From Dictyostelium discoideum (taxonomy: Eukaryota), in the NCBI GenBank assembly GCA_000004695.1, contig CM000155.2, forward strand, positions 640,001-704,000: a stretch of DNA of 64,000 bases, given 5' to 3'. This document shows positions 32,553 through 44,151 of the stretch, one piece after another. The notes beneath the pieces were generated by a model. It ran no database searches and had not been told where the DNA came from. It was given only the letters and a program-made list of their open reading frames with translations. Each line of letters begins with the position of its first letter. The first letter of the stretch is position 1. The translations under genes were made by a program, and so were the position numbers.

Positions 32553-33128
32553 TTATTGATTTGCAATAGGATTTGCATGAATTGTAACAGATTTTAAAAT
32601 GATTTCATTTAAAGGTAAATCTTTATCATCAACGGGTACTTTTTCCATTAAATCTAAAACTTCAATACCTGCTATTATCTTTCCAAATACTGTATAAACT
32701 TTATTTAAACTTCTATGTTTTCCATATGTTATAAAAAATTGTGACCCATTTGTATCTGGTCCACTATTTGCCATTGATAAAATTCCACGTGTATTATGCT
32801 ATAATTATTATTATTATAATAAAATTTTAATATTTAATTTATAAATATATATAAATGTTGAACTAAAAAAATAAATTATTATAATTACTTTTAAATGTGA
32901 CGGAAATTCATCCTTAAATTGCTTTTTCCAAATACTTTCACCACCTCTACCTGTATTTGTTGGATCACCACCCTGTATCATAAATCCTTTAATGTTTCTA
33001 TGAAATATTGTGTTGTTATAATAGTTTGATGCACATAATGCTAAAAAATTTTCAGATGCTAAAGGAACTGAATCACAAAAAATTTCAACTTTAATATCTC
33101 CTAAACTTGTATGTAAAGTGACTGACAT
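32553..33128 (-). CDS. ppil3: Peptidyl-prolyl cis-trans isomerase-like 3 (cyclophilin PPIL3); exons 33128..32889 and 32798..32553
   Basis: Exon 1 [63 protein letters not shown] matches PPIL3 almost residue for residue. An AAA|GTAATT donor and 90 bp intron end in an ATAG acceptor. Exon 2 reads [27 protein letters not shown]... Confidence 0.85.
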
Positions 33129-33729
33129 TCTAAATATTTATTAATTTGTTTTTTTTTTTTTTTTTTTCTTTATTTCAACAAATGAAAAAACAATAGTGAA
33201 AAAAAAAAAATCAAAGAAAATTTAAAAATGAAATTTTTATTTTTTTTTTTATTTTTTTTTATTTTATTTTATTTTATTTCGCATAAAAGTAATAATTTAA
33301 AAGATTGTGATTGAAAATGACTGGGGGATAAGGGATTATTATAATTTGGTATTTAATTTATAAAAACAAAATATGTTGATCCTATGTTGTCTAATATTTT
33401 TTATTTTTTAGATCTATTTTTATTATTTTTTATTATTTTTTATTATTTTTTATTTTTTATTTTTTTTTTTAAATTTTATCACCATCTGTTTTTTTTTTAA
33501 CCCAAAAACTTTATTTTTAGAATTCAATTATTCGCCATTCATTTTTTGTAATTGAAGGGAATAAATTTTATTAAAAAAAATTGATTTTAATTTATTTATT
33601 TTTTTTTTTTTTTAAAAAAAGACAAATAGGTCAACAGAATATAAAATTTAAATTAAACAGTATTAATAAAAAAAAAAAAAAGTTGGAATAACAATTATAA
33701 TTTTATATTTATTTTATTTTTAATATTTT

Positions 33730-33769
<40 letters not shown>

Positions 33770-33795
33770 AAATTCGAATGATAAGAATATTTTAT

Positions 33796-35024
33796 TCAAT
33801 CAGCAGTTTTCTTTTCCTTGTCCGAAGTAGATAAATTCTTTAAAAGATCAAGCAATTCATCTGCACCATCACTACCATCTCCACCATTATCATCACTTTC
33901 ATCACTTTCATAATAGTTATCTGAATTGATTTCTGGTTTATATTTATCATCCCCAATATAAAATCTTCTATGTTTTCCAGAATCATAAAAAAACACATCG
34001 TCTTTATATGCTGATTTAATCTTTTCTTTATATACAAGAATTAGAGAATGATCATTATCATTCAGATCCATTTCACCATCAGTACAAACCATTCTTAATT
34101 TTTTTGCAATTATTTTGAAATCCTCCAAGATTTCATGTGATTTTTTGAAAACAAATTCCATTGGACTCTCACCATTCTCAATTTTCATTATTCCTGCCTT
34201 CTGTTGATGTTTATATCCCGTATATCTTTGATTGTTAAAAAAAATTCTTTTTTCCAAAGTGTATCCGGCAATAAATGGACTTTCGATAATATTATTCCTT
34301 GTTGGAATATGGTATGATACGTTGGATCATCTTTTTTAGTCTGAGAGATTATCAAATGTACCTTGTCACCCAATCTTTGAACTTTAGAACATGATAAACA
34401 GAAATCACTAATCAAATTAGGAAGACTTGGATCCATAAATGAACTTCTATCATGAGGCATTGACCAATATATTTTTGAATATCTTTCATTTGATTCATGT
34501 ATTTTTGTTGCATCTAATCCAAAAATAACAGTACATTCAGAAATTATTAAAAATTCAATATTTTTAATTGTCAACAAACAGTTATCACATTTTTTAACAT
34601 TATCTTCACAACATCCGTAGGTTGTAACTCCAGTTTTTATAAGTACATCCTTATGAACTTTAAATTTATTGTAAACTGTTTGGGAAATATATAAATCTGA
34701 AGCGGTTATTTTTAAAAATTTCCCATCATTTGTGTGATGATTTTGGTTATGTTTTTCCAATAAAGAAGTTGAAAATGAGAAATTTCCTTCGCCTACAAAT
34801 AAAATTTTATGATGTCTCTCTGCTTTACATTTCGAAAGTGGGGCTCTAGTTTGGAGGAAAAAAAAATAAAAAAAAAAAAAATAAAAATAATTTAAAATGA
34901 TAAATTCAAATTTAAAATAATTTGGAAATTAAATATTTTATTCTAATAATTACTTGGTTTCAGATTTAGACACTCTTTTAGAAATTTCAGATATTTTTTT
35001 TTTATTTGGTTGAGGTGTATACAT
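33796..35024 (-). pseudogene. DUF2431/BMT5-like putative methyltransferase, array copy 1, frameshifted; exon-1-like 35024..34954 and body 34845..33796
   Basis: Same two-exon layout as the intact copy: MYTPQPNKKKISEISKRVSKSETK then GTAATT intron, then APLSKCKAERHHKILFVGEGNFSFS.... The reading frame breaks near 34190-34260 because of a 7 bp deletion relative to copy 2 (CAAGG-A-ATAATATTATCG versus CAAGGCTGTGTATATAATATTATCG). This splits the body into ORFs 34188..34760 and 33796..34257. Confidence 0.6.
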
Positions 35025-35535
35025 TTTCAAATATATATATTTTATTTGATAGGTTGTTTTTTTAAAAAAAAAAAAAAAATTTTAGTTCATTGTTTTTTTT
35101 ATCTTATTTTTTTAAATTTTTTTTTTTTAATTTTTTTTTTTTAATTTTTTTAATTTATTTTATTATTTAAAATTGATTTATCAGGTCAATTTCATATAAA
35201 TTTCATAAAATTCTCAATAAAATTGGTTTGATTTTAAAATTAAAAAAAAAAAATTAAAAAAAAAAAAATTTTTTTAAAAATTTGATAAAAAAAACTTTAA
35301 TCAATAATTTTTATTTTTTTATTTTTTTTTATTTAAAATTGATTTGGGTGGTCTTTCGTATAAAAATAAACTTTAAAAAAAGAATGATCCAAATGTTTTT
35401 GAAATGATTAATTTAAAATAATTTTGAAATTAAATATTACTTGGTATCAGATTTAGACTCTCTTTTAAAAATTTCAATTTTTTTTTTAATTTGGTTGGGG
35501 TATATCTTAAAATATTTTATTTGATAGGTTGTTTG

Positions 35536-35584
<49 letters not shown>

Positions 35585-35931
35585 TTTTCAAAGTTTTTTT
35601 TTATATTATTTTTTAAATTTTTTTTTTTTTTTTATAATTAAAAATTGGTTTGTGTGCCAATTTCATATAATTCTCATAAAATTCTTAATAAAACTAATTT
35701 TTTTAAAACTCTCAATAAAATGGGTTTGTTTAAAATTAAAAAAAAAAAAAATTTTAAAAATAAGATAAAAAAAACTTATATTCATTTAAAATTGATTTGT
35801 TCTGTTAATTATAAAAATCTCATATGAAATTCTAAATAATAAAATAAATATATAAAAAAAAAAGAGTGATCCAGAATTCTACATTAGGAGCATTTGATGA
35901 TACAACTTTCTTTACCAAGGAAGGTTCGCCT

Positions 35932-36032
35932 GAGCCACTTTAGAAATTTGAGATCTGAAAAATTGAGACCACTTTGGGAATTTGAGATTTAAAAAATTGA
36001 GACCACTTTAGAAATTTGAGAATTAAAAAATT
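35932..36032 (+). repeat. 33-34 bp tandem repeat x3 (GAGACCACTTTAGAAATTTGAGATTTAAAAAATT)
   Basis: Three near-identical direct copies seen in sequence, inside the ectopic copy of the 41611..44151 gene tail. Confidence 0.8.
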
Positions 36033-36340
36033 TGAGATTTGAGTATCTAAAAGAAATCAAATTTGAAATTAAATTTACTCTTAATCATATTAAAAAAAAT
36101 TATTAACCAATGATTTTAATAAAATACCAAATGAATTCTCCAAACCAAAAGGGAAAAAAAAAAAAAAAAGTTGGAAATACAATTATAATTTCATTTTAAT
36201 TTTTTTTTTTATTTTTAAATTGAAACTTTTGGTTATGTTTTTTCAAAAATGATGTTGAAAATGAGAAATTTCCTTCACCTACAAATAATATTTTATGATG
36301 TCTCCCTGCTTTAAATTTTCGTAGTGGAGCTCTAATTTAG

Positions 36341-36394
<54 letters not shown>

Positions 36395-36970
36395 TAAAAT
36401 GATAAATTTAAAATAATTTGGAAATTAAATATTTAATTAAATAATTACTTGGTATCAGATTTAGATACTCTTTTTAGAAATTTTAAATATTTTTTTTTTT
36501 ATTTGGTTGAGGTGTATACATTTAAAATATAAATTTTATTTGATAGGTTGGTCAAAAAAAAAAAAAAAAAAAAAAAATTTTTTTTTTTATTTTTTAATCT
36601 TATTTATAGTGATGCCAAAAAGTTTTATTTTGGCTTAAGTTTTTAAAATTGATTTTTATAAATCTCATAAAATTCTCAATAAAATGGTGATTTAAATTTT
36701 TTTTAAATTAAATTTTTTTTTTTATTTTTTTTTTTTAATTTAAATTTTTTTTTTTTTTTTAATATTAATTTTTTTATTTTATTTTTTTTTTTTATTATAA
36801 AGCTCTAAAAATGAAGTTGGTATTTTAATTGATTTAAAAAATTTGAGATTTGAGGCAGTGTATAAAAGAAATCAAGTTTGAAATTAAATTAAAAAATTTA
36901 CTCTTAATCATATTGAAAAAAATTATTAACCAATGATTTTAATAAAATACCCAATGAATTCTCCTATCAG

Positions 36971-37004
<34 letters not shown>

Positions 37005-37352
37005 GAAAATACAATTCCAATTTCATTTTAATTTTTTTTTTTTTTTTATTATTAAATTGAAATGATAAGAATATTTTATTCATACATTAGTTTTCAATTG
37101 TTTTATTTTAAAATTGGTAAATTCTTAAAAAAAAAAAAAAAATAAATTAAAAAATAAAAATAAATTAAAAAATAAATTAAAAATAAAATTTTTTTTTTTT
37201 TTAATTTAAAAAAATAAGATAAAAAAAACTTTGATCAATTTTTTTTTTTTTTTATATTCATTCATTTAAAATTGATTTGTGTGGTAATTCATATAAATCT
37301 CATATAAAATAATTAATATTATATAAATTTAATATATTAAAAAAAAAAAAAA

Positions 37353-37943
37353 ATGAATGATTCAGATGTTTTTAAAATTTTACTAATTGGTGATTCAGCA
37401 GTTGGAAAAACATCGTTATTATTAAGATTTACAGATCCCAATAATTTTCAAGAGACTTCAGTAAATATGACTAGTGTTGATTATAAAAATAAAAATATAA
37501 CTATTGATGGAAGAACATTTAATTTACAAATTTGGGATACAGCAGGACAAGAGAGATTCAGAACAATTACATCATCTTTTTATAGAGGAGCACATGGTGT
37601 TTTAGTATGTTATGATGTCACTGATCAACTTACATATAATAACGTTGGGTTATGGATGCAAGAAATTCAAAGATATGGAGTACTTGGAGTTAGTAGAGTT
37701 TTAGTTGGAAACAAATGTGATCTCGAAGATAGAAAATTGGTTAACGCTTCAATTGCCCAAGAATACGCTGATATTCTCGGTATTCCATTCATTGAAACTT
37801 CTGCTACAACTGGTGTTAATGTAGAAGAGGCTTTCATGGCAATGGCAGATGAAATTTATAGAAATCATATAGGTGGCTCAAAACCTTCTGTTGTAAAACC
37901 AGTATGTGGAAGTCCTCCCCGCACGAAAAAAAATATTTGCTAA
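37353..37943 (+). CDS. Rab-family small GTPase, single exon
   Basis: GDSAVGKT (G1), WDTAGQE (G3), GNKCD (G4), ETSAT (G5). Rab-family motifs RFRTIT and YRGAHG are present. It lies inside the tandem array, 35 bp downstream of one copy of the ATTGATTTG... motif. Confidence 0.85.
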
Positions 37944-38056
37944 TTTTAAAGAAGAGTGGATAGAAGAAGGAGGGTTTTTGCCAATTATTTTAAAGTTTCA
38001 TATAATTGCAACATCAAAAAATAAATAAAAAAATATAAAATGTAAAATTTAAATGG

Positions 38057-38097
<41 letters not shown>

Positions 38098-38304
38098 AAA
38101 CTTTTTTTAGTTTTTTTAATCAATTCCTTATTTCTATTTAGTTTATTAATAGTTCTTTTTTTTTATTTTCATAATTATCTTATTTTTTTATTTTTTTTTA
38201 TTTAAAATATAGAACATATTTATATTTCAATAAATATGTTATATATGTTTCTTATTTTTATTAAATTGAAAAGATAAGAATATTTGATCCAAACAAAATT
38301 TTTC

Positions 38305-39554
38305 TTATAATTGTCTATTTTTGTCTGAAGTGGATAAATTCTTAAAATTATTGAAAAATGATTCATCTTCACTATCATCATGATTATCACCATGATCATC
38401 ATGATCATCATAATAGTCATCTGAGCCAAACTCTGGTTCATAATCATCATCTCCAATATAATAACGTCTATAGCCTTCTTTTTCATAATACCTTAATTTC
38501 TTATATGATGATTGAATCTTGGTTTCATATTTATTACTTATAACTTTATCATTTCCTTGAAGATCTATTTCCCCAACAGTTCTTAATTTTAAAGCAACAT
38601 TTTTGTATTTTTCTAAAACTTTTCCAGATTTTTTGAAAACAAATTCCATTCGATGTTTTCCATTCTCAACTTGGTCTGTTCCTTCTGTCTGTTGATGTTT
38701 ATATCCCTTATATCTTTGATCGTCAAAATAATATCTTTTTTCCAAAGTGTATCCAGCAATAAATGGGCTTTCGATAATATTATATACACAGCCTTGTTGG
38801 AATTCGGTATGATAGGTTTTTTTTCGATGTATCAAATTTTGAGAGATTATCAAATGTACCTTGTCACCCAATTTTTGTACTTGAGAACATGATAAACAGA
38901 AATCACTTATCAAATTAGGGAGACTTGGTGTTGAATATTTAGTTCTATCATGAGGCATTGACCAATATATTTTTGAATATTTTTCGGTTGATTCATGTAT
39001 TTTTTTTGCATCTAATCCAAAAATTACTTGGCAATCGAATTTTATTAAATAATTAATATTTTCAATTGTTAACAAACAGTTTTCACATTTTTTATCAGCT
39101 TTTGGTCCACAAAAATCTTCAGGACATTGGTATTTTTCAACTCCAGTTTCTTTAAGTACATATCCACAATCTTCGAATACTTTAAAAACAGTTTCACATA
39201 CAAATAAATCTGAAGCGGTTATTTTTAAAAGATTATTATCATTTGTGTGAAATTTTTGGTTATGTTTTTTCAATAAAGATGTTGAAAATGAGAAATTTCC
39301 TTCACCTACAAATAAAATTTTATGATGTCTCTCTTCTTTACATTTTGATAGTGGAGCTCTAATTTAGAAATAAAAAAAAAAAAAAAATAAAAAAAAAAAT
39401 AAAAAAAAAAAAAAAAAAAAAATAAATTTTTAATAATTAATTTTTAATAATTTGGAAATTAAATGTTTTAATTAAATAATTACTTTGTATCAGATTTAGA
39501 CACTCTATTAGAAATTTCAGATATTTTTTTTTTATTTGGTTGAGGTGTTAACAT
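38305..39554 (-). CDS. DUF2431/BMT5-like putative methyltransferase, intact array copy; exons 39554..39484 and 39358..38305
   Basis: Exon 1 MLTPQPNKKKISEISNRVSKSDTK ends in an ACAAA|GTAATT donor. A 125 bp intron ends in an AAATTAG acceptor. Exon 2 begins (K)APLSKCKEERHHKILFVGEGNFSFSTSLL, the hallmark N-terminus of the BMT5/DUF2431 family, and continues through KIYWSMPHDR and GDKVHLIISQ into an acidic YYDDHDDHGD tail. The ORF is uninterrupted. Confidence 0.65.
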
Positions 39555-40075
39555 TTTCAAATATATAAATATTTTATATGATAGGTTGATGAAAAAAAAA
39601 AATTTTTTTTAAAATAAGATAAAAAAACTTAAGGGTTCTAAAATAAAAAAAAAAAGCCAATAATTTTTTTTTTTTAATTTAATTTTATTCCAAATTGATT
39701 TGTCTGGCTAATTTCATCTAAATCTCATTTTGTTTTTATTAAAATTTCATTAAATTTTAAATAAAAAAAAAAAAATTAAAAAAAATAAGATCTAACCTTC
39801 GCGTTTTTTTTGAGGTTGCTTTTTTAAAATTTTGAATTTTTTTTTTTTTTTTTTCTTTTAAAATTTATCATATCATTACCATTTAAAACTTCAAATAATG
39901 ATTTGCACTTTGGGACCCACTATAATTTGTTCAAATAATTGTTTTGTTTCGAAAAAAAAAAAAATAAAAAAAAAAAAGGTTGGAAATACAATTATAATTT
40001 TATTTTATTTTAATTTTAATTTTTTTTAATTTTTTTTGCTTTTTTTATTAAATTGAAATGATATGAATCTTTGAT

Positions 40076-41051
40076 TCAGAGAGCAGTTTTCTTATAATTG
40101 TCTACTATTGTCTGAAGTGGATAAACTCTTAAAACTATTGAGAGATGATTCATATTCACTATATCAGAGTTGAATTGTGGTTGATAATCATCATCTCCAA
40201 TATAATAACGTCTAATGCCCTCTATATCAAAATACAATAAGTTATATGATGACTGAATCATGATTTTATATTCATTAATTCTATCTTCGTCATCTCCTAG
40301 AAGATCTATTATAAAAAATCTTCTAAATTTTGATGCAACATTTTTGTAATTTTCTAAAATTATACCAGATTTTTTGAAAACAAATTCCATTAGACCTACA
40401 CTATCAACTGTCATTGTTCCTTGTGTATTTTGATGTTTATATCCCTCATATCTATTATTCTTAAAATGAATTCTTTTTTCCAAAGTGTACCCAGCCTTCA
40501 ATAATATTGTAAACAATGCCTTGTTGGGATTGGGTATGAATGGCTGAATAATCATCTTTATAAACTTGAGCGATTATAAAATGTACCTTGTCACCCAATT
40601 TTTGTGCTTCAGAACATGATAAACAGAGATCACCAATCAAATGAGGAAGAGTTCCTTTTTTAAATGAACTATTAGGCATTGACCAATATTTTTGAATATT
40701 TTTCATTTGATTCATGTATTTTTCTTGCATCTAATCCAAAAATAACTTTGCATTGAGAATTTATTAAAAATTTAATATTTTCAATTGTCAACAAACAGTT
40801 TTCACTTTTATTATCATCTTTTGTTCCACAATATTCCTTAATACATTTGAAGATTTTAACTCCAGTTTCTTTAAGTACATCTCCACAATCTTTGAATTCA
40901 TTAAAAACAGTTTCACACACATAAATCTGAAGCGGTTATTTTTAAAAATTGATTATCATTTGTATAAAGATGTTGAAAATGAGAAATTTCCTTCACCAAC
41001 AAATAATATTTTATGATGTCTCTGCTTTACATTTTGGAATTTGATTTTTAA

Positions 41052-41087
<36 letters not shown>

Positions 41088-41216
41088 ATTTAAAATGGTT
41101 AATCTAAAATAATTTGGAAATTAAATATATTAATTAAATAACTACTTTGTATCAGATTTATAGACTGTTTTAGAAATTTCTGTTATAATTTCTATATCTG
41201 GTTGAGGTGTATTCAT
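40076..41216 (-). pseudogene. DUF2431/BMT5-like array copy 3, multiply frameshifted and internally deleted
   Basis: Homologous to copy 2 but split over ORFs 40672..40920, 40461..40730 and 40076..40555. The region after FSFSTSL is deleted. The exon-1-like segment at 41216..41146 reads MNTPQPDIEIITEISKTVYKSDTK. Confidence 0.6.
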
Positions 41217-41610
41217 TTTCAAATATATATTTTATTTGATTGGAATTTATTAAATTATAAAGTAAAAAATTTAAAAAAAAAAACTTTTAACAATAGTTAT
41301 TTTTTTTTTTTTTTAAAATTTAATTTTTTTAAAATAAATTTATTTTAATAATTCTCAGATTTGTGAGAAAAAAAAATAAAATAAAAAAATAAAAATAAAT
41401 TCTAAAAATAATTATCAAATGTTTTATTTTTATTTTTTTATTTTTATTTTTTTTTTCTCATAATCTGAGAAAAAAGATTTTTTCCCCACCCGATTTATCA
41501 ATTAAATCAAAATATTTTAATAATTGATTAATGGGGGAAAAAAAAAATAAAAAAAAAAAAAAAATTTTATTTATTTAATTTTTTTAAACTTTTTTTATTT
41601 TTTTTTTTTT

Positions 41611-44151
41611 TTAGAATCTGTTTTTAACACCACTTAAAAAATAATCATAAATTATAGAATCATTATTATCCTTAAAATATTGATTACAAAGCTCTACAAA
41701 TAAAGTTGGTCTTTTAATTGATTCAAAAAATTTGAGATTTGTGGCAGTGTCTAAAGAAATCAAATTTGAATATGATACTGAAATTAACTCTTCAGCATAT
41801 TTAAATAATAAATTATTAACCAATGATTTTAATAAATCACCAAATGAATTCTTGAAACTACCACATGAACAATTCCTTCCAAAAATAAATTCAAATGAGA
41901 ATATATTTGGTAATAAATAATTTCTAATTTGATAAGAAATTGAATTATTATTATTATTATTATTAAGAGTGACAGGAGGTGTTTGAATATTTGAATATTG
42001 TTTATTACAATCATAAAATCTACTATAAGGGATAGTAGTTTCGTGTGGAAATGATAGTATATATTTTGTAAACTTTGGAGATCTAATATGAAGAAAATAA
42101 AATGTTTCATATAATCCAGGTTCACTGAACCAACTTGGGTAACCAGTATTTCCATTATTAATATATTGGTGTACTGATTCCATCATTTCAATTGTAAAAC
42201 CTTTATGTTGAATTAATTTTCTATAAAGATGTTGAATCATTATGTTAATACCATTACTAAAAGGCACATATTCTTTAAATCTATCATAAAATGATTTTAT
42301 TAGAGTGATCATTGCAGTAATATCGGTAGCAACTTTACCATCACCATTACCATTATTACTATCATCATCACCATAATGATATATTATACGATTAGCTCCA
42401 TATCCATGTTTGAAAATGATTGCTTTAGTATTAATTGAAGGATTATAAGATTCAACTAAATCATCGAATATATTTGAATCAAATTTAACCTTTTTACAAC
42501 AATTATTTAATAAAAATTGTAATTGAATTAAATCCAATTTAAAAATTGAATTTACAATAATTTCTTGAATCTCTTTAATTTTGAAATTCTCTTCAATTTT
42601 AAATTCTAAAAATGCTGCTTCTGTTGCTGATGATGATGATGATTGTGATGATTTATAATATCGAACTAATTGATTATAAAATCTTTTTAAATTTTCATTT
42701 GTAAAACTTTTAAATTTTGATTGATTTAAATAATTTAATAATTTAATAATTTGTTTAATTGGAGTATTTGGTAAAATGAAATCATCATCATCATTATCAT
42801 TATCATTATCATTAGATTGAAAGTCTAAAACTTTAATATTTAATGAATCTATAATTTTCAAATTATTTAAATCACATTGTTGGATTGATTTCTTGAATAG
42901 GTATCTAAATATATACTCTTTTGATTGTTGCTCTACTTGTATTGAATTCTCTTTGCCTTTTAAATAAAATGATTGAATTGATTTAAAAGAATTTAATTGA
43001 CCTGTTACTTCTTTACTATCATTATTATTATTATTATTATTATTACTATTATTATTATTAAAATTATATGCATATTGAATTATTTGAAAATCAGTAAAAA
43101 CAATAGAATGATCATTTAATAATACTGATAAAATAACTTTATTTTCAAATGAAATTAACCAATTTATAATTAATTTATCAGATATTATTAATGAATAAGA
43201 TTGTTGTTTTTCTAAATTTTGATTATTATTATTATTTTTAATATATTTTAAAATTGGAAACATATGAAATTTCTTTAAATTCATTTTCTTTTTATATTCA
43301 TTATAAAAATTAATTATAAATGGTATTGAAATTGATGGTTTACTTAATTTAATATATCTTAAAAATGAAATTAAATAAGATTCATCAGAACCATCATTTT
43401 TATCTTTAAATTCATCTTTATTATCTTTGAATGCATTTAAATAATGATCACCATAATAAAATTCATCAAGTTCATCTTTACATTGATGAAATTCATCAAT
43501 TGATTCATTATATTTTAAAATGTAATCTTTATATAATTCTATTTGTTTTGTTTCAATAATTATAAATTTTTGTAATTTTTTTAATTTATATTTTTCAATA
43601 TCACAACTACTACCACTACTACCACTTTTACTACCACTACTACTACCACTACTACCACTACTATTGCTACTGATTTTTTTAATTTTATTATTAATTTTAT
43701 CTAATTTTGAATCAAGTGGTTTAATTGGTTTATTTAAAACATGGATTAAATTTGTTCTATGTGTAAATAATAATTCATCAAATGATTGATTAATTGTTAA
43801 ATTAAATGGTTTAGTGACGAAAAGACGATTTGTAAAGATTGATAAATCATAGATTTTATTTAATAAATTATAATTTTCAAAATCATATATTTTTCCAAAT
43901 GAAAAACTATTTTTTTCATCATTACATTTTGAATCGTATAAACCACTATTAAATAAGAAAAATTCTAATAATTGTTCTCTACTTTCTTCTCTATTCTTTA
44001 AAATTAATGATATTAATGTTTTATTTCCAATAAATGGTTCAACTTTTTCAATTTTACCATATTGTTGAATTTGAATTTTTATAAATTCTTTTATAAATTC
44101 GATACTTGAATATTTTAAAACATATTGTAAATTTGATGGTAAAACTTTCAT
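41611..44151 (-). CDS. Hypothetical large Asn-rich protein, 846 aa
   Basis: Long uninterrupted ORF with coding-type composition. No domain recognised. Its last ~190 bp of coding sequence has diverged non-coding copies at 35880-36135 and 36788-36975. In frame upstream of the ATG, the (AAT)n repeat reads as poly-N back to a stop at 44371, with no ATG. Confidence 0.55.
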   Translation of the reverse strand: MKVLPSNLQYVLKYSSIEFIKEFIKIQIQQYGKIEKVEPFIGNKTLISLILKNREESREQLLEFFLFNSGLYDSKCNDEKNSFSFGKIYDFENYNLLNKIYDLSIFTNRLFVTKPFNLTINQSFDELLFTHRTNLIHVLNKPIKPLDSKLDKINNKIKKISSNSSGSSGSSSGSKSGSSGSSCDIEKYKLKKLQKFIIIETKQIELYKDYILKYNESIDEFHQCKDELDEFYYGDHYLNAFKDNKDEFKDKNDGSDESYLISFLRYIKLSKPSISIPFIINFYNEYKKKMNLKKFHMFPILKYIKNNNNNQNLEKQQSYSLIISDKLIINWLISFENKVILSVLLNDHSIVFTDFQIIQYAYNFNNNNSNNNNNNNNDSKEVTGQLNSFKSIQSFYLKGKENSIQVEQQSKEYIFRYLFKKSIQQCDLNNLKIIDSLNIKVLDFQSNDNDNDNDDDDFILPNTPIKQIIKLLNYLNQSKFKSFTNENLKRFYNQLVRYYKSSQSSSSSATEAAFLEFKIEENFKIKEIQEIIVNSIFKLDLIQLQFLLNNCCKKVKFDSNIFDDLVESYNPSINTKAIIFKHGYGANRIIYHYGDDDSNNGNGDGKVATDITAMITLIKSFYDRFKEYVPFSNGINIMIQHLYRKLIQHKGFTIEMMESVHQYINNGNTGYPSWFSEPGLYETFYFLHIRSPKFTKYILSFPHETTIPYSRFYDCNKQYSNIQTPPVTLNNNNNNNSISYQIRNYLLPNIFSFEFIFGRNCSCGSFKNSFGDLLKSLVNNLLFKYAEELISVSYSNLISLDTATNLKFFESIKRPTLFVELCNQYFKDNNDSIIYDYFLSGVKNRF

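Follow-up and report, generated by a model that had tools for sequence, protein, structure and literature searches.

Why does RabG1, a Rab gene of Dictyostelium discoideum embedded in an array of unrelated BMT5-like genes, have just before its start codon the same ~60-nucleotide (nt) non-coding motif that precedes members of that array? We examined this question in a window of 64,000 nt (positions 640,001 to 704,000 of the forward strand of contig CM000155.2, assembly GCA_000004695.1), which has a G+C content of 16-35% and long homopolymer runs. A preliminary description of this window had noted at least seven copies of the motif and proposed that it could be a shared or bidirectional promoter module or a small dispersed element; a place as mere part of the duplicated unit was named as the outcome that would refute this. 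The evidence presented here suggests that the motif is the core of a module that is probably the ancestral promoter-region 5' flank of the BMT5-like genes, one copy of which was acquired by RabG1.

The alignment of the seven proposed copies with MAFFT yielded the shared sequence TTTAAAATTGATTTG.{2}TGG.{2}AATTTCATATAAATCTCATAAAATTCTCAATAAAAT. A profile built from them matched the window with nhmmer at exactly seven places, all on the forward strand, between 35166 and 39745 (E from 1e-12 to 2e-6, the eighth match having E=0.76). Since such a test is circular, we repeated it as leave-one-out: each omitted copy was recovered (E from 1e-8 to 6e-3), the best non-copy position having E 0.34. Both the number of copies and, within a few bases, their coordinates thus agree with the preliminary description; we refer to them, in order along the window, as A1, B1, A2, B2, A3, B3 and A4 (Table 1). 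The 24-mer CTCATAAAATTCTCAATAAAATGG occurred twice in the window with up to three mismatches, against no occurrence in 100 shuffles, while the sub-strings AAATTGATTTG and TCTCATAAAAT, with at most one mismatch, showed no enrichment in the window (17 occurrences for 24 expected and 7 for 10 expected, respectively). The statistical significance belongs to the full-length motif alone; no short site in general use emerges. A metagenome-wide scan with AAATTGRTTTNNNNGNYNAATTTCAT retrieved 53 matches on contigs of 26-56% G+C, which are due to chance since none of them extends past the pattern (10-18 bits).

Thirteen copies, the seven of the window and six from related genomes, served to define the anatomy of the region. 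The motif is the sequence-complex core of a non-coding module of 140-170 bp consisting, in this order, of a K box (AAAATAAGATAAAAAAAAC), often a CCAAT-like box (YCAATAA), a poly-T tract, the 60-nt motif and a poly-A tract. In 11 of the 13 copies, a poly-T of 8 nt or more stops 0-27 nt short of the motif; in 12 of them, the poly-A begins 39-96 nt past the motif start. The 3' half of the motif is made of two to four tandem 11-nt units similar to TCTCATAAAAT, as detected with Tandem Repeats Finder (TRF); A1 has 3.2 such units (period 11, 35188-35221) and A2 an extra internal 27-nt duplication reaching ~35737 (period 27, 35677-35735). The module lies 120-200 nt upstream of the BMT5-like ATG and is always directed away from the gene, a fixed distance and orientation that bear out the earlier placement of the motif 5' of BMT5-like exon 1. 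Two modules stand in tandem in units 1 and 2 of the array, A followed by B, 147-166 bp apart. The K box AAAATAAGATAAAAAAAACTT had been described as usually preceding the motif, which holds for B1, B2, B3 and A4, where it is found on the forward strand 28-78 nt upstream, and not for A1, A2 and A3, where it is inverted. On the reverse strand, the K box of A1 is followed by a 16-nt poly-T (35079-35064), so that the K box/poly-T pair (35110-35064) faces the gene G1; that of A4, on the forward strand, is followed by GCCAATAA (39656-39663) and then by a poly-T tract (39664-39675). The copy upstream of RabG1, B3, was correctly recognized as sequence-complex, being the only complex sequence between the upstream gene remnant and the RabG1 ATG; its position was also right, although it ends 32 nt before this ATG (37353) instead of the 35 bp initially given.

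Related genomes allowed us to order the events at this locus. All seven copies are present in a D. discoideum strain 99% identical to the window (L001). The D. discoideum strain L007 has diverged further (its copy of the neighbouring ABC transporter gene is 95.5% identical) and possesses four intact BMT5-like genes and RabG1, with only three motif sites: before RabG1, before the orthologue of the gene G3 and before a G1-like gene. The last one is palindromically rearranged, the 3' half of the motif forming there (L007 14750-14812) two near-perfect palindromes side by side, AATTTTATGAGATTTTATAAAATCTCATAAAATT and TTGAGAATTTTATGAGATTTTATAAAATTCTCAA. The genome of D. cf. discoideum L002, the RabG1 of which is 92% identical, has one copy upstream of RabG1 and another upstream of the G3 orthologue; in this genome, unrelated genes are inserted between G1 and RabG1 (L002 7008-9248). 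As L007 has only three copies and L002 only two, A1, B1, A2 and B2 are additions of the AX4 lineage. The strain L007 also retains an intact BMT5-like gene (ATG 14958) divergent from RabG1 (ATG 14095); the G1-to-Rab spacer is 863 bp there, compared with 2.3 kb in the window, where the counterpart of this divergent partner is the fragment f3 and where the Rab side of units 1 and 2 is a mere stub. The most distant lineage sampled, D. cf. discoideum ACTFIZ (L008; ABC gene 89.7% identical), has two BMT5-like genes and, at the syntenic locus, neither RabG1 nor any Rab stub. Both genes nevertheless have, ~100-230 nt upstream of their ATGs, a module with a K box, a 26-nt poly-T, a diverged motif (E ~1e-3) and a poly-A, whereas the surrounding intergenic DNA is otherwise unalignable. 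Motif copies in L001, L002, L007 and L008 occur exclusively in syntenic positions, upstream of BMT5-like genes or RabG1. These comparisons indicate that the module is part of the BMT5-like 5' flank and was present at this locus before RabG1.

In D. citrinum and both D. cf. discoideum lineages, Med20 and a DUF218 gene flank the RabG2-type genes that are the closest relatives of RabG1. We compared RabG1 with the RabG2-type loci L003-L006 from these three genomes (~85 kb; the RabG2 locus of AX4 is not among them), aligning the window span 37353-38176 with L005 10001-11768, L006 and L003. RabG2-type genes contain three (L005, L006) or four (L003) introns, the first one after nucleotide 11, whereas RabG1 is intron-less, with every RabG2-type exon junction exactly fused. 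The DNA homology covers the coding region (~90%), ~25 nt 5' of the ATG (22 of the 24 nt before both ATGs are identical) and ~250 nt of 3' flank, from which a ~250-bp segment of the parental 3' flank containing ACCAAACC repeats is missing. This 3' homology continues past two poly-A tracts of the parent locus, and since the 39-nt poly-A at 38057-38095 has a counterpart there, it does not represent the tail of a retroposed copy. RabG1 could have originated either by retroposition of a long transcript or by DNA duplication with intron loss.

Two RabG1 5' stubs found after B1 and B2 record part of this history. In stub 1, which is joined directly to a fragment of BMT5-like intron 1, the exon 1/2 junction is already fused; stub 2 is even shorter and identical to the spliced RabG2-type start. 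The presence of these stubs indicates that a ~480-bp piece, composed of BMT5 intron 1, exon 1, the A module, the B module and the first 12-24 nt of RabG1, was duplicated twice. Both stubs keep a RabG2-like proline codon (GAT CCA), where the live RabG1 encodes serine (GAT TCA) in AX4, L007 and L002. Either the stubs go back to an older state of RabG1, even though they are absent from L007 and L002, or the change arose by convergence or gene conversion.

How the module might work is suggested by the known promoter grammar of the species. Across the D. discoideum genome, poly-T tracts on the sense strand stop ~2 bp short of transcription starts, TATAAA(A/T)(A/T) boxes lie ~29 bp upstream of the starts and sense-strand poly-A begins just past transcript ends (Chang et al. 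2012, PMC3371697, and Kimmel and Firtel 1983 as cited there). The layout of the module appears to match this RNA polymerase II core promoter grammar, with a poly-T before the motif, an A-rich GATAAAAAAAA box and a poly-A after the motif, as well as the K box/poly-T pair that faces the BMT5-like gene G1. In RabG1, the GATAAAAAAAA of the K box is located ~27-37 nt before the poly-T end, namely where a TATA box is expected, although its sequence is a variant with one mismatch. Canonical TATAAAT and TATAAAAT boxes do exist inside B3, without a following poly-T. The published grammar is one of generic A/T tracts and does not account for the motif, whose 60-nt sequence is specific and restricted to the family.

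From these observations we propose that the motif multiplied through repeated tandem duplication, truncation and rearrangement of genes together with their flanks, and not by its own mobility. RabG1 would have come to rest directly downstream of a module whose BMT5-like gene persists as the 3' remnant at 36998-37130; the location of this remnant just upstream of the RabG1 K box suggests that the module was orphaned by the deletion of an array member. The K box and poly-T would then form a TATA-like core promoter firing rightwards, with a RabG1 start predicted near 37255 from the 3' end of the poly-T (37239-37253), and the motif would constitute the first part of a ~100-nt RabG1 5' leader. Alternatively, the TATAAAT/TATAAAAT boxes within the B3 motif might be used. 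For the BMT5-like gene, the same module would be the upstream promoter region, and from modules associated only with BMT5-like genes one would expect no more than a short divergent transcript that stops at the poly-A. The two duplications of the ~480-bp piece took place afterwards in the AX4-type lineage and generated the dead copies A1/B1 and A2/B2. A more specific version, which we put forward only tentatively, is that the K box, poly-T, motif and poly-A made up a self-contained divergent promoter cassette of the BMT5-like genes, the short upstream antisense transcript of which became the 5' leader of the RabG1 mRNA when an intron-less RabG2 copy arrived right after the poly-A.

Concerning constraint on the module, the evidence is modest and mixed. 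Between orthologues, the A4 motif is 0.91-0.98 identical compared with 0.84-0.89 for coding DNA (57 of 58 positions in L002, with a coding identity of 0.86, and 54 of 58 in L007). B3 and its flank, ~80 nt from ~37258 towards the ATG, are identical in L007, for which the Rab third-codon identity is 0.924, and the RabG1 K box with CTTTGATCAAT is identical in the three lineages having the gene (window, L007 and L002). Other observations weigh against our interpretation. Between paralogous units, motif identity (0.67-0.76) merely tracks that of the coding sequences (0.73-0.77). The copy upstream of RabG1 in L002 differs at 7 of 71 positions, two of them in the TTGATTTG core, so that it appears no better preserved than third-codon positions (identity 0.878). 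G4, two BMT5-like genes of L007 and the L002 G1 have no recognisable motif upstream, implying that it is not indispensable for the family. As for the shared or bidirectional promoter module of the preliminary description, the anatomy fits and the K box and poly-T match the grammar of PMC3371697, but we infer promoter activity, start sites and any transcription factor involved from layout. In addition, the K box departs from the canonical TATAAA(A/T)(A/T) and is oriented differently in G1-type and G3-type units. Since homopolymer-bounded complex islands occur commonly between Dictyostelium genes, the poly-T/poly-A framing of the motif may be generic. Among candidate factor-binding sites, STATa TTGAATTGA, GBF G-box/CAE and CArG sites were dropped, the conserved AAATTGATTT, CTGG and AAATCTCAT fitting them inconsistently. 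A literature search on RabG1, its gene identifiers and transcription-start tables returned nothing usable.

Several of these points are equally what would be expected if the motif were a functionless hitch-hiker, visible thanks to recent duplication and to a complex sequence that escapes replication slippage. The equal identities of paralogous motifs and coding sequences, the third-codon rate of the Rab-proximal copy of L002 with its lost core and the BMT5-like genes devoid of motif all agree with it, as does the proximity of dead gene fragments to five of the seven window copies. For these five, the data largely bear out the idea of a mere part of the duplicated unit: A1, B1, A2 and B2 are strain-specific and travel with gene fragments, and A3 is upstream of a deleted gene. 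Pure neutrality is a serious rival for most copies. As an explanation of the whole we nonetheless consider it rather unlikely, since a diverged module has been kept upstream of both L008 genes amid unalignable DNA, in three comparisons out of four the orthologous A4 and B3 have changed less than third-codon positions or coding DNA, and the RabG1 K box region is invariant in three lineages. Quite different would be a small non-coding RNA (ncRNA) gene family in which poly-T, 75-105 nt and poly-A delimit an independent short transcription unit. Its framing would conform to the published start and end grammar (PMC3371697), and a 7-bp hairpin differs on both sides between A1 (AAATTGA...TCAATTT) and A2 (AAATTGG...CCAATTT). 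This hairpin is nevertheless broken in B1, B3, A4 and one L008 copy (L008_Ga), RNAalifold found no consensus pair in 11 copies, four of six folds were no stabler than shuffled sequences (z-scores mostly near 0), Rfam 15 gave no match at E<=1 in 33000-42000, and there is no upstream element like the DUSE of Dictyostelium ncRNA promoters. We judge this explanation very improbable.

Mobility fares no better. A miniature inverted-repeat transposable element (MITE)-like non-autonomous element of ~180-205 bp, bounded by inverted K-box/homopolymer arms, might be evoked by the 59-nt arms flanking A1 (35090-35148/35236-35294, 80% complementary) and the 37-nt arms flanking A2 (35595-35631/35738-35774, 95% complementary), both pairs including inverted K boxes. 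Nevertheless, these arms are mainly poly-T against poly-A and so trivially complementary, inspection disclosed no target-site duplication at 35090/35297 or 35592/35777, and the inverted layout is restricted to two AX4-specific units, the other modules having a single K box. Moreover, all copies are contained in a 4.6-kb stretch, the remaining 59 kb of the window and the ~85 kb of RabG2-type loci have none, and those of other genomes are orthologous only. This lends no support to the small dispersed element envisaged at the outset, and we consider a MITE even less probable than an ncRNA family. No tRNA gene, a possible marker of retroelement targets, was found in the window. The least probable of the explanations considered is that RabG1 brought the motif from the RabG2 promoter and that the BMT5-like genes gained it secondarily. 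By eye, TTGATGGTTGTG...GTGTGCATATAAAT upstream of RabG2 does resemble TTGATTTGTGTGG..TTCATATAAAT, and the near-identity of the 24 nt before both ATGs could be read in the same way. Against this, the motif profile had no match at the RabG2-type loci and the Smith-Waterman alignments of RabG2 upstream sequence with the motif copies scored within the AT-rich background (98 of 521 control windows scored as high), indicating that RabG1 did not bring the motif; the module is, besides, present in L008, which lacks RabG1 and Rab stubs.

Table 1. Features of the BMT5-like/RabG1 array. Positions are those of the 64,000-nt window; E values are from nhmmer.
Feature	Position	Strand	Remarks
Motif A1	35166-35224	+	E=1.5e-12; leave-one-out E=1.3e-8; 142-200 nt upstream of G1 ATG (35024), pointing away from G1
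Motif B1	35332-35366	+	E=1.9e-6; leave-one-out E=6e-3; 3' half lost; followed by RabG1 stub
Motif A2	35639-35694	+	E=1.3e-12; upstream of exon-1 fragment f2
Motif B2	35785-35840	+	E=1.1e-9; followed by RabG1 5' stub 2
Motif A3	36642-36686	+	E=1.6e-6; 14-nt internal deletion; 121-165 nt upstream of f3 ATG
Motif B3	37265-37320	+	E=5e-10
Motif A4	39689-39745	+	E=4e-11; 135-191 nt upstream of G3 ATG (39554)
K box of A1	35090-35110	-	2 mismatches; faces G1
K box of B1	35277-35297	+	2 mismatches
K box of A2	35592-35612	-	3 mismatches; inverted
K box of B2	35757-35777	+	exact
K box of A3	about 36590-36607	-	inverted
K box of B3	37211-37231	+	AAAATAAGATAAAAAAAACTT
K box of A4	39611-39631	+	3 mismatches; between G3 exon 1 and A4
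Poly-T, 15 nt	37239-37253	+	RabG1 sense strand
RabG1 5' stub 1	35382-35405	+	GAATGATCCAAATGTTTTTGAAAT; live gene GAATGATTCAGATGTTTTTAAAAT; 21/24 identical
RabG1 5' stub 2	35864-35875	+	GAGTGATCCAGA; 12/12 identical to spliced RabG2-type start (AT)GAGTGATCCAGA
RabG1 (Q54E92)	37353-37943	+	single exon, 196 aa; exact match to XP_629970/RABG1_DICDI
BMT5-like G1 (DDB_G0291770)	33796-35024	-	frameshifted; annotated as truncated 242-aa protein; ATG 35024
BMT5-like f2	near 35440-35507	-	exon-1 fragment; ATG destroyed (35497-35507)
BMT5-like f3	36225-36521	-	internally deleted fragment; ATG 36521; intact orthologue in strain L007
BMT5-like 3' remnant	36998-37130		immediately upstream of RabG1 K box
BMT5-like G3 (DDB_G0291740, PF10354)	38305-39554	-	intact, two exons, 374 aa; ATG 39554
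BMT5-like G4	40076-41216	-	multiple frameshifts

The genes that surround RabG1 on the reverse strand belong to the Pfam family PF10354. This BMT5-like family is small, fast-evolving and methyltransferase-like: orthologous coding DNA is only 77-89% identical, compared with 90-95% in the neighbouring ABC transporter gene. A word-based search recovered only eight homologues at E<1e-10, and the family seems confined to the D. discoideum species complex. A protein search with DDB_G0291744 for the syntenic locus in more distant species had the query itself as sole match. The structure of the array varies among strains and sibling species (33650-41300 compared with L007, L002 and L008). In the window, two overlapping open reading frames (ORFs) in different frames make up G1 (33796-34760) and three ORFs make up G4 (40076-40920); both look like decaying pseudogenes, although G1 carries the protein annotation DDB_G0291770. 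Upstream of G4, which has no motif, there is a 44-nt inverted repeat (TTCTCAGATTTGTGAGAAAAAA... / ...TTTTTTCTCATAATCTGAGAA, 41352-41471) with 32 nt between its arms, followed by CCCCACCCGATTTATCAATTAAATC, and the same structure exists upstream of the orthologous gene of L007. Just past Rab stub 2, a 34-nt unit (TGAGACCACTTTAGAAATTTGAGATTTAAAAAAT) is tandemly repeated 3.1 times (35931-36037). A segment of ~130-170 bp is present twice within the array (36020-36145 and 36791-36962) and matches at 77-82% L007 7429-7607, L002 13555-13733 and L008 6705-6883. As these three stretches adjoin the orthologue of DDB_G0291744, which lies at the distal limit of the array, the interior copies indicate that end-of-array sequence was transferred into the interior.

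The locus resembles tandem arrays shaped by unequal crossing-over in its units of gene plus flank, its truncated units, its chimeric junctions and its copy-number differences between strains (four intact genes in L007, whereas the AX4 type has two genes that look intact, one badly decayed copy and two fragments). It departs from them in that the 5' end of an unrelated gene was swept into the unit, as attested by the Rab stubs, and in the internal duplication of the module. New duplicate or retroposed genes can acquire the upstream or bidirectional promoter of a neighbour, a process reportedly reviewed by Kaessmann, Vinckenbosch and Long (2009). RabG1 would be comparable, being intron-less and placed head-to-head with the 5' flank of another family, with its parental promoter undetectable. 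It differs in that retroposition is only one possible origin, the 3' homology running 250 nt past two parental poly-A tracts, and in that the donor promoter comes here from a decayed gene copy and the RabG1 promoter is putative. The locus is of a familiar kind, in which promoter DNA is co-duplicated as part of a tandem array that is decaying and has probably been captured by a newly arisen gene, and the module is an ordinary lineage-specific cis-regulatory relic.

If the proposed mechanism failed, this would be nothing more than ordinary flanking DNA, duplicated along with the genes of an array in decay. If it is true, the locus would offer a compact natural experiment on how a newly arrived gene copy obtains a promoter, since the module as donor, RabG1 as recipient, the RabG2 locus as parent and a sibling lineage without RabG1 at this locus can all be compared and the copy number varies among strains. 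It also provides a testable candidate cis-element for the lineage-restricted, fast-evolving BMT5-like family, in AT-rich Dictyostelium intergenic DNA where specific cis-elements are hard to find. Under the tentative version with a divergent cassette, the acquisition of the module by RabG1 would be a datable, strain-polymorphic promoter capture through which a social amoeba obtained a new Rab paralogue.

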